64,000 nucleotides of DNA from Perkinsus olseni (taxonomy: Eukaryota), in contig JABANN010000002.1 of assembly GCA_013115125.1 (NCBI GenBank), forward strand, positions 1 to 64,000, given 5' to 3'. This document shows, piece by piece, positions 41,656-44,600 of this stretch. The notes below the pieces were generated by a model that was not told the DNA's origin, ran no database searches, and worked only from the letters and a program-made list of their open reading frames with translations. Positions within the stretch are counted from its first letter, which is position 1. Each line of letters opens with the position of its first letter. The translations under genes were made by a program, and so were the position numbers.

Positions 41656-44600
41656 ATGTATTCTCATGATTCCGAGGAAGACTATGGCGACGTTGATTTG
41701 CCATCGGAGCTGCTAGCGGCATTGGCCCAGTCGCAGGAGGCCGACTCGGACCCTTTGGAACAGCCTGAGTTTGATGTGGTGGAATATGTTAATGATATGT
41801 TCCCGGATGAAGGCAGCCTGAAGGAGGTTGATGCGAAGTAGTATCTTGGGTTGGACCTTGCTCGCGGTGTGAAAAAAGATACGCTTGTGGTAGGGGAATC
41901 CCGGTCATGAGAAAGGATAAGACGATGAAAATTCGTGCGCGGAATCTCAATCAAGATGAGTGATCGGAGTGAATTTTGTAATTACCTCGGATCAACCTAA
42001 GATGCGGTAGGCGAGCGCCGCTCGTAAGGATCAGTGATATTGAAAAAATCGGTGGTGATGAGAGAGACGAGTTGAAGAATCTTTTGAAATATTCAATAAA
42101 CTTCGTTATGGCGCGCTGTGGTAGTGAACGGCCTGGGAAATTCGTTTTCACCTCGGATCAACCTAAGATGCGTTCGAGCTCAGCACAGCGAGGCCCATAG
42201 GTGCGAGTCCTAAGCAGGATACTTATTTTCGAGGATTGAACACCCCAGTGAGATTACCGAAAGTCGCTCCGGTAGGAGAACTTCCAATCAGGGAGTCCAG
42301 TGATAGTCTTCGTGAAAGCGGACAAAACGAACGTGACAAAAATAACAAGCTCCAGAGGCAGACTTTCGTCCAGAACTGTTTTGGGAGTTGCTACGCTTCG
42401 AAGTTGGTGGTACGTGAAGCATCTTTTCTTTCCGTAACACTCGAGAGTGCAGCATGTAGAAAGGTACGAAGTGATCTACACGTCGACCCGAAGCACATCG
42501 CATAGCTAACGAAAAATGTGGTAGGGGAATTTAAATTGGGGCCTCGGCAATGACACGAGCATGGCAAGAGCATCTCCTCGATCGCGCGCCATTTCGGAAT
42601 CTTTCCGCTCTGTTTGGAGTCGTGGTTACCTAGGTTAGCAAGCATCGAGTCGGAGATATCTGAACTGGATAAGGAGATAGATCGTGGAGTGCGAGACTAC
42701 GCCCAGCGGGCTGTCGATGGCGATGCTGAGAAGGCGTTGAAGGCCGCCACAGCCGGGGTTGAAGAGCTTGACAGTAGTACAGGGTGGTCACGGGAAAAGA
42801 GAAAAATCGGAAAAATGAGGTAGTGTTTTTAATGGTTGGAATTTTCAACTTGGAAATAGTAAAACGAGGAAAACTGACATTTATTCCGTGATTGTTGGTA
42901 AAAATGAAAAATGAGTTTTTTCGTATGGTCGGAAATTTTCCGACGGAAAAAAGAAAAATTGGGTTTTTTGGTGGTTTGAAAAATTACGAATTCGTTATCA
43001 GAAAGTTGAGATTGTTTTCCGATGGTTGGGGAAATTCAAGCCGGCCTGGTGTTGTGTCTAGGGTATGATCCCGTTACTAGTTATGGACCGGGGATCGTGC
43101 GCAGAAGCAAATTCAGGAAAATCGGGAAAACTTAATTTTATGAGTAATTCTGAGTTCTCCATCTTGGAATTTCTGATCATTAGTAGTGTTCATGCGACGG
43201 TCCCGTGTGGGCGTGAACAGCATGGCTGGTCTTTTCCTTGGCCTCGAGTTTACCAGTCCTGATTCCCGCATGGAGCTTCAGTAAACGCTCCAATGACGCA
43301 TAGCTGTCTGGGTGCGATCGAAGAGAGTCTTACAAGTTCTCGATGTCTTCTTTAGTGACCACTTTGGTGGAGTGGGCGGACGGGATTTTGAAAAAAAGAA
43401 TTTCTGATGAATTTTTTGATAAATTTGGGTTGTTCGCCTAGCCTGTGCTCAGGAGGAGTCCGTGAGTGATTGTTGTGAATACTTCGAGCGTCGAGATACT
43501 ATTGACCGCAGGGAAAGGTGCTTTACAAATCGTCAATTTGAAGCGAAACACTTTCAGGTTCGGACGCGGGTTTGCCTTTTTAACTTGTTATAAATAGTTA
43601 TTGGCCCCCCGCTTCGATGAGTCTTTTATCTTTTGTAGTTGATTAAGAATTGCCAACTGCGTTAGTTCGGCTGTTCAACGGCTATCTTCTGAGATTCATC
43701 AGGAGTGCTTTCAGGATGGTCTCTTGCACGTGGAGTTCAATCGTGAGAAGAAGCAACAACATTTCCTCTCCCCGCTGAAATCGAGGAGAGGAAATGTTGT
43801 TGATTAGCTTCCGACTACCCCGGGTGATCAACGATTGGCCCTCTCCTGAGTTCCAAGAGATCCTATTTTAAACGTTAAACTCAATCCTCGGAGTGCGTTT
43901 GCAAACATCCCCCGGTGATGAGTAATTCTCTCATTTTCTCTTGAATAATTCAGATAAAATTAAATCTATCCATTCCCGCGCCCGGGAGTCCGAGGAGCTG
44001 GTCCAATCCGTGTCGGGCGACGTAGCCGCACTTGACGTTGCGAAGAAGCATATCACGGCAACGGTGACGGCTTTGAAGCGGCTGGTGATGTTGGTTAGCG
44101 CAACAGAGCAACTTACTGCATTCGCGGCGGAGAAGCGCTTTGAGCAGGTAATCGAAAGGTCGTGGGTTCGAATCCTGGGAGGGGCAGTTTTTTTTTCAGT
44201 GTACTCCGCTCGTCCTTGCTATTGTTGAACTGTCGGAGATGTTCGAGCCGTTGCGGCCGCGACTACCACAGGTATCTTTCATTCTGAATCGTGCAAGCTT
44301 CAACCTTCTACTTTGCATCTTAGGTTGAGGAGCTGCTGAATCACAAAGATCGTCTGTTGGAAGATCTCAAGGCCGAGTGCCTGGAAGACATTGAGGTGAG
44401 TGTTGTTATTGGGAGATTTCGTCCCGTTTTCGGAATTTTTCTCCCACTTGATCAGGGTAAACTTTTCACGCCTGGATACGACCCTGAGAACAAGGTTGAC
44501 GTTAAGGCCGCTTGTGAAACGGCTGCGGCGATTGGGAAGGAGGTAAAGGATGATGTTATCAGCATGTAAGAAAAATACTCGGTCATGTGAAACTGAGGTA

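Follow-up and report, generated by a model that had tools for sequence, protein, structure and literature searches.

We analysed a stretch of 64,000 nucleotides (nt) of Perkinsus olseni DNA (assembly GCA_013115125.1, contig JABANN010000002.1, positions 1 to 64,000 of the forward strand), referred to below as the window, and focused on a 52-nt intron at 44148-44199 that lies in a Vps53-like gene and resembles the 3' part of a transfer RNA (tRNA) gene. The sequence just upstream of this intron (43956-44147) matched the Pfam family Vps53_N with an E value of 4.2e-16 over profile positions 71-133, and further exons downstream matched profile positions 223-259 and 261-297. Four of the six Vps53 exons (three short middle exons and one further exon) gave no Pfam match. 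The first exon ends at profile position 133 and the fifth starts at 223, and the 85 residues that lie between these anchors span 88 profile positions, so that nothing is gained or lost at the 44148-44199 junction.

Splicing was assessed with contigs from four sequencing runs, mapped to 37001-57000 (15 of the 40 joints are listed). The runs were X1, a DNA run; X7, guessed to be RNA; X8, of unknown kind; and X19, a metatranscriptome library. We observed that one contig each in X7, X8 and X19, which come from three studies, skipped exactly the 52 nt with GT and AG at the ends. In X1 no contig skipped the intron, and a 6388-nt contig crossed it unbroken. A preliminary description of this locus had proposed that the junction be looked for in RNA, and the junction is indeed in use there; the letters, the coordinates, the length and the placement between the codons FEQ and CTP given in that description all agree with the sequence. 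When the eleven listed junctions from 44148 to 47478 were joined, a single open frame resulted. This frame reaches a stop within 47638-48147, and another junction must therefore lie there, outside the 15 joints listed. Together, these observations led us to conclude that 44148-44199 is a working U2-type intron that is really spliced. A run of nine Ts (T9) precedes CAG at its 3' end, and no clear branch-point consensus was identified in it. Introns of Perkinsus are mostly shorter than 100 base pairs (bp), according to PMC3101222.

Two other observations were made on the 5' side of the same gene. A 1180-nt intron of the Vps53 messenger RNA (mRNA) lies at 42774-43953 (+), and an X7 contig (42744-43892) crosses its donor unspliced, so that the intron may be retained or may contain a separate transcript. 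A loose 5' end is seen in the RNA contigs of both X8 and X19 at 41634-41636 (+). At 41634 this end, taken together with the genomic AG, equals the final 12 bases of PmaSL1, the spliced leader of Perkinsus marinus (PMC3101222), and 41634-41636 is the trans-splice acceptor of the Vps53 mRNA.

We then considered what the 52-nt intron is made of. The preliminary description had read it as the 3' half of a tRNA followed by a terminator of RNA polymerase III (Pol III), with the donor in the anticodon loop and the T-run doubling as the polypyrimidine tract. A manual count along the consensus of the Rfam tRNA model placed intron bases 1-39 on tRNA positions 35-73 without a gap. The donor GT occupies positions 35-36 and AA occupies 37-38; the next five bases make up the 3' side of the anticodon stem and are followed by a variable loop of five bases, the T-arm, seven bases as the 3' strand of the acceptor stem, and an A as the discriminator. 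Over positions 36-62 the intron was identical to the Rfam consensus at 24 of 26 bases, as compared to 19 of 26 for the tRNA-Lys that is the only true tRNA of the window. The placing of the donor in the anticodon-loop part and of the T-run at the acceptor was confirmed, T9 ending 3 nt before the AG, and it is from these positions that the tRNA-like parts would appear to act as splice signals. In all, 49 of the 52 nt belong to the tRNA-like part or to the T-run, and this leaves no room for an older surrounding intron.

To see how unusual this likeness is, one may turn to the counts in the whole window. The T-loop 18-mer of the intron, with up to 3 mismatches allowed, was found at five sites against 0.04 expected, and none of 100 shuffles reached five; the T-arm of the true tRNA-Lys is among these five, at 2 mismatches. 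The B-box consensus GGTTCRANYCC had eight exact sites against 0.54 expected, and again none of 100 shuffles reached this number. That a single short, GC-rich intron should look like a T-arm by chance would fit the silence of the Rfam tRNA model and the unpaired T-stem (both described below). However, it would not account for either site count, for the gap-free fit to positions 35-73, or for the five further copies of the block that the window holds, and we consider it extremely improbable.

These further copies came from a scan for the T-loop core, which found six copies of the T-arm/B-box block (that of the 52-nt intron included) besides the true tRNA. Their GT lies on the plus strand at 25918, 33433, 44148 and 45997, and on the minus strand at 55232 and 56763. 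In this order, the GT and the GGTTCGA core are separated by 8, 12, 15, 8, 20 and 10 nt, with the first G of the core at intron base 11, 15, 18, 11, 23 and 13. Five of the six copies open an intron right after the donor GT and in the sense direction of their gene, and these five introns lie in at least three genes, among them the Vps53 gene, an ion-channel gene and a coiled-coil gene (Table 1). The assignment as an intron is based on RNA in two cases (44148, 45997), on Pfam continuity in one (33433) and on reading frames in two (55232, 56763); the junctions of the latter two are absent from the 15 of 40 joints listed, and sequencing depth at both is low. The eight exact B-box sites correspond to five of the copies, the true tRNA, and two sites at 61251 (-) and 61592 (+); the last two lie in apparently coding sequence and have no further likeness to the block. 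The local alignment of the 45997 intron with the 52-nt intron had a score of 30, which none of 500 shuffles reached, and among the 14 other RNA-supported introns listed it is the only one that clearly resembles the 44148 intron. The preliminary description had hinted that the 44148 intron is one example among several, and this was borne out by the further introns that open with the same block, as seen from RNA, frames, Pfam and the B-box scan. The finding is thus wider than a single intron.

Table 1. Positions of the 52-nt Vps53 intron, its parts and flanking exons, the related copies of the block, and the true tRNA gene in the window
Feature	Position	Strand	Basis and remarks
Spliceosomal intron, GT..AG, 52 nt, phase 0	44148..44199	+	Vps53-like gene, between FEQ and CTP; skipped by contigs
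Exon before the 52-nt intron	43954..44147	+	RNA contigs and Vps53_N profile positions 71-133
Exon after the 52-nt intron, 24 codons	44200..44271	+	RNA contigs and open spliced frame
Block like a tRNA 3' half (tRNA positions 35-73, donor GT on 35-36)	44148..44186	+	Hand count; profile model
T-loop/B-box-like word GGTTCGAATCC	44165..44175	+	18-mer, T-loop core and B-box scans
T9 run, putatively both terminator-like and pyrimidine tract	44188..44196	+	Starts one base past the discriminator-like A and ends 3 nt before the AG of the acceptor
272-nt intron of the same Vps53 gene	45997..46268	+	Starts with GT, 8 nt, GGTTCGATCCC; junction 45996>46269 in X7, X8 and X19
tRNA-Lys(UUU), the only true tRNA in the window	46167..46239	+	ARAGORN; Rfam 61.6 bits; inside 45997-46268, on the gene's strand
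Inferred 50-nt intron of an ion-channel gene, same block at start	33433..33482	+	Ion_trans profile positions 3-149 joined to 168-201; frames
Inferred 53-nt intron, same block at start, B-box with one mismatch	55180..55232	-	Open frames of 107 and 185 codons
Inferred 49-nt intron, same block at start	56715..56763	-	Joins open reading frames (97 and 30 codons)
Sixth block copy, which begins with GT	25918..25957	+	No clear coding frames around it

Some other sites were looked at as possible relatives of the block. The 160-nt Vps53 intron at 47478-47637 (+) opens with the 11-mer GTAAYCGAAAG, as the 52-nt intron does; it was not counted (p of about 0.012, uncorrected, in 14 tests). The RNA-supported 50-nt intron at 48148-48197 (+) contains GGATTGAACC, the reverse complement of a T-loop-like word, beside a 7-bp hairpin, and may be an antisense relative of the block class, at a profile score of only 3.8 bits (E 8.3). 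The stretch 62111-62147 (+) gave a weak, repeatable profile match to the block (13.0-15.9 bits, E 0.001-0.008); no GT precedes it, its setting is not clearly that of an intron, and it may be a decayed copy or a chance match. A frame-based finder of short introns was dropped, as it returned 1193 and 1127 candidates on the two strands and recovered only three of the six known short introns.

As regards structure, the claim of a tRNA half fared less well. ARAGORN called the tRNA-Lys and no other tRNA in the window, and did not call the intron. T-stem pairing was not better than chance in an alignment of the six copies and the tRNA-Lys: 71.4% of the cells were paired against a shuffled mean of 71.5%, 433 of 500 shuffles were as high, and the outer pair of the stem was unpaired in five of the seven rows. 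RNA folds of eight introns contained no T-arm, and their stability was unremarkable (z-scores of -1.09 to +1.19). Mimicry of a tRNA arm by the excised RNA was considered and dropped on account of these folds and of T-stem pairing at the level of shuffles. The 5' half of a tRNA was also absent from the window, since the D-arm 18-mer of the true tRNA had a single site, the tRNA itself, and ARAGORN found that one tRNA. The block is therefore tRNA-like sequence and not an intact or usable tRNA half. What stood of the original claim of a tRNA 3' half with a terminator is the gap-free fit to positions 35-73 and the T9; the unpaired T-stem, the folds that lack a T-arm and the silence of the Rfam tRNA model did not agree with it.

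The relation of the copies to each other was evaluated with hidden Markov models (HMMs) that were built from five copies at a time. The left-out sixth copy was found at E values from 1e-5 to 0.017 (12.0-22.2 bits), while the tRNA-Lys scored 7.2-11.1 bits. The HMM from the other five copies found the 44148 block at E 1e-5 with 22.2 bits, and five of the six left-out copies ranked right behind the training copies. The copies are closer to each other than to the true tRNA of the window. All six have a G at the partner of position 49, and it pairs only in the 55232 copy, with a C at 49; a G-rich run after the T-loop is common to four copies. Their mean column identity was 72% over 40 nt and was concentrated in the core. 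Such shared departures from a working tRNA suggest descent from a common tRNA-related source rather than from separate working tRNA genes. There were no near-identical copies and no terminal repeats among them. Searches with the flanks gave counts near chance (GTAGGTCGCGGG at 8 sites against 2.96 expected, only 3 of which are copies; CYGGGAGGGGYA at 12 against 11.18), so that the copies could not be recovered independently of the B-box.

The 272-nt intron deserves separate mention, since it holds the tRNA-Lys as well as a copy of the block. The depth of DNA contigs over the 59-nt core of this tRNA was 1234, against about 155 in its flanks, which indicates that the tRNA-Lys is multi-copy and the flanks are not. 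An intron with an intact sense tRNA and a decayed T-arm block at its start is the intermediate that one would expect under the main competing explanation. This explanation holds that old introns carried whole tRNA genes on the sense strand and were trimmed by deletion to minimal length, the trimming being tolerated where the exon end was fused to a GT of the tRNA and the T-run was kept. The unusually many tRNA genes of P. marinus (reported in PMC3706591) speak for it too. However, the same precise trimming at the donor would be needed in each of at least five introns, and the D-arm 18-mer search found no remnant of a 5' half in the window. Only 3 nt of the 52-nt intron are neither tRNA-like nor T-run, and the copies share features that a working tRNA does not have and are mutually closer than they are to the true tRNA. 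We consider such trimming unlikely, though it should be taken seriously.

The block might instead be kept by selection for a present function, either as a B-box bound by TFIIIC or as a motif in the RNA close to the donor (G-runs, or a site for a protein) that aids the splicing of very short introns, in which case its likeness to a tRNA would be convergent or historical. The 11-nt B-box consensus is exact in five of the six copies and the adjoining 3' strand of the T-stem has drifted, as selection on the B-box would predict; this contrast is, however, largely a product of the B-box bait with which the copies were found. A DNA-binding site would need neither one orientation nor a distance of 8-20 nt from the donor, the likeness extends well past the B-box into the variable loop and the anticodon stem, and the fold z-scores given above speak of no outstanding RNA structure. 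We regard this explanation as improbable. B-box-only sites that bind TFIIIC are found in yeasts, where they are called 'extra TFIIIC' sites. The copies resemble them in having a B-box consensus without an A box outside tRNA genes; the yeast sites differ in that they are independent of position and orientation within genes.

The reading that we favour, with a probability of about one in two, is that the 52-nt body goes back to the 3' portion of a Pol III gene of the tRNA type, together with its oligo-T, and that the recurrent class arose from copies that were cut at the 5' end and were inserted or spread. Splicing, the tRNA-like geometry, the recurrence and the sense orientation beside the donor were observed; from these we infer the descent, the roles as signals and, above all, the insertion. 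The source would be a tRNA-related Pol III element whose copies, cut at the 5' end, came to be inserted into coding exons or moved from one exon to another in the manner of introners. Only those copies would have survived that could be spliced at once. In these, a GT within the tRNA-like part would have become the donor, the G-rich T-arm and the acceptor stretch would fill the body of the intron, and the T-run with CAG would have become the pyrimidine tract and the acceptor. The outcome would be a recurrent class of introns of about 50 nt, with the T-arm/B-box block directly after the donor GT. Insertion of 5'-cut copies, along with a filter for immediate splicing, would explain the start at GT, the sense direction, the minimal length and the missing 5' halves.

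Several results weigh against this proposal. The Rfam tRNA covariance model gave no match to the intron at the gathering score, and the intron was also unmatched at E<=10, both in a search of the whole window and in one of the 111 nt around it. Likeness among the copies is confined to about 30-35 nt, with differences elsewhere, from which they would be old or separately derived. They were found by a B-box bait, so that the preservation of the B-box is partly due to ascertainment, and the family comparison had one true tRNA only. For three of the five introns, the assignment is based on frames or Pfam rather than on RNA. The boundaries of the copies were read for target-site duplications and showed nothing consistent, and the DNA contigs of X1 contained no form of the locus that lacks 44148-44199. 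Finally, the presence of a whole tRNA gene inside the neighbouring intron fits the decay of nested tRNA genes.

A more far-reaching proposal, which we put forward only tentatively, is that a large and old class of introns of about 50 nt originated from, or multiplied as, the 3' half of a Pol III gene of the tRNA type. This would be a 'mini-introner' in which a promoter box and a terminator are reused as splice signals in transcripts of RNA polymerase II. To our knowledge, such an element would be smaller than any introner known. If this were true, and if the whole genome had the same density of 5-6 per 64 kb, such introns would number in the thousands.

Introners, or introner-like elements, are repeats that generate introns in algae, fungi and dinoflagellates (PMC13685798, citing Gozashti 2022 and Roy 2023; for Amoebophrya, PMC7789003). 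The introns described here are similar to them, since introns of unrelated genes consist entirely of one recurring sequence, which lies in the sense direction and has its own splice signals. They differ in that the copies are only about 50 nt long, share no more than a tRNA-like core of about 30-35 nt, seem to derive from a Pol III gene, and are without terminal repeats, target duplications or near-identical members. A search of papers outside subscription journals found none that describes spliceosomal introns made of tRNA halves and none on introners in Perkinsus. Nothing relevant that links the word GGTTCGAATCC to introns was found by title or abstract.

Short interspersed nuclear elements (SINEs) derived from tRNA are similar in that the B-box is kept although the T-stem no longer pairs. 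However, SINEs have a 5' half with an A box, a body and a tail, whereas here there is only a 3' half and a T-run, which start exactly at the donor GT. An A box or a tRNA-related 5' head was not found at the copies, as the D-arm 18-mer matched the true tRNA only and the exon abuts the GT. Fragments of tRNA pseudogenes and tRNA genes nested in introns are likewise of tRNA-derived sequence, and the neighbouring intron does hold a whole tRNA-Lys; the difference is that the fragment here is the entire intron and supplies its donor and its pyrimidine tract. Curtis and Archibald reportedly described, in 2010, a spliceosomal intron that arose from inserted mitochondrial DNA. That intron would be a precedent for captured foreign or repeated DNA that becomes an intron at once, but it is a single case from another source and not a recurrent class.

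We also looked for relatives in metagenomes. The search for relatives of the Vps53 exon gave 595 pattern matches there, and none of them was confirmed by tblastn. A scan with a 24-nt degenerate pattern of the 25918 copy found 81 loci (L001-L081). Of these, 74 have one SINE-like body downstream and 61 have a tRNA-like anticodon arm upstream, and ARAGORN called one tRNA among them. The loci were rejected as relatives of the introns, since 74 of the 81 belong to one tRNA-derived, SINE-like family of another eukaryote and are not introns flanked by exons. This family is concentrated in a few metagenomes, and its B-box is kept and its T-stem unpaired, as in the intron copies.

The origin of new spliceosomal introns is a long-standing question, and so far such introns are known to come from a small number of transposon-like introner families and from isolated DNA captures. 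The Vps53 case, together with the further introns that open alike, hints at a way of making introns that has not been described. If the proposed descent is true, minimal introns made from halves of tRNA-type genes would be a new source, and a part of a Pol III gene, with a loop or stem that contains GT, an arm rich in G and an oligo-T terminator, would be ready-made for splicing. Apart from their origin, the B-box-like sites and tRNA-like words in these introns can mislead the annotation of tRNAs, SINEs and repeats.

Two other features of the window were noted. A repeat of about 120 nt is present in two copies, at 37181-37300 and 51433-51550 (both +), with a DNA depth of about three times that of the surroundings and with contig joints between the copies. 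It had no match in Rfam, and may represent a small RNA gene of an unknown kind or else a short mobile element. At 25107-25180 there is an AT-rich, near-perfect hairpin that on both strands gave many matches below threshold to families of microRNA precursors (the best at 38 bits, against a gathering score of 93.5), and this is probably a simple inverted repeat.
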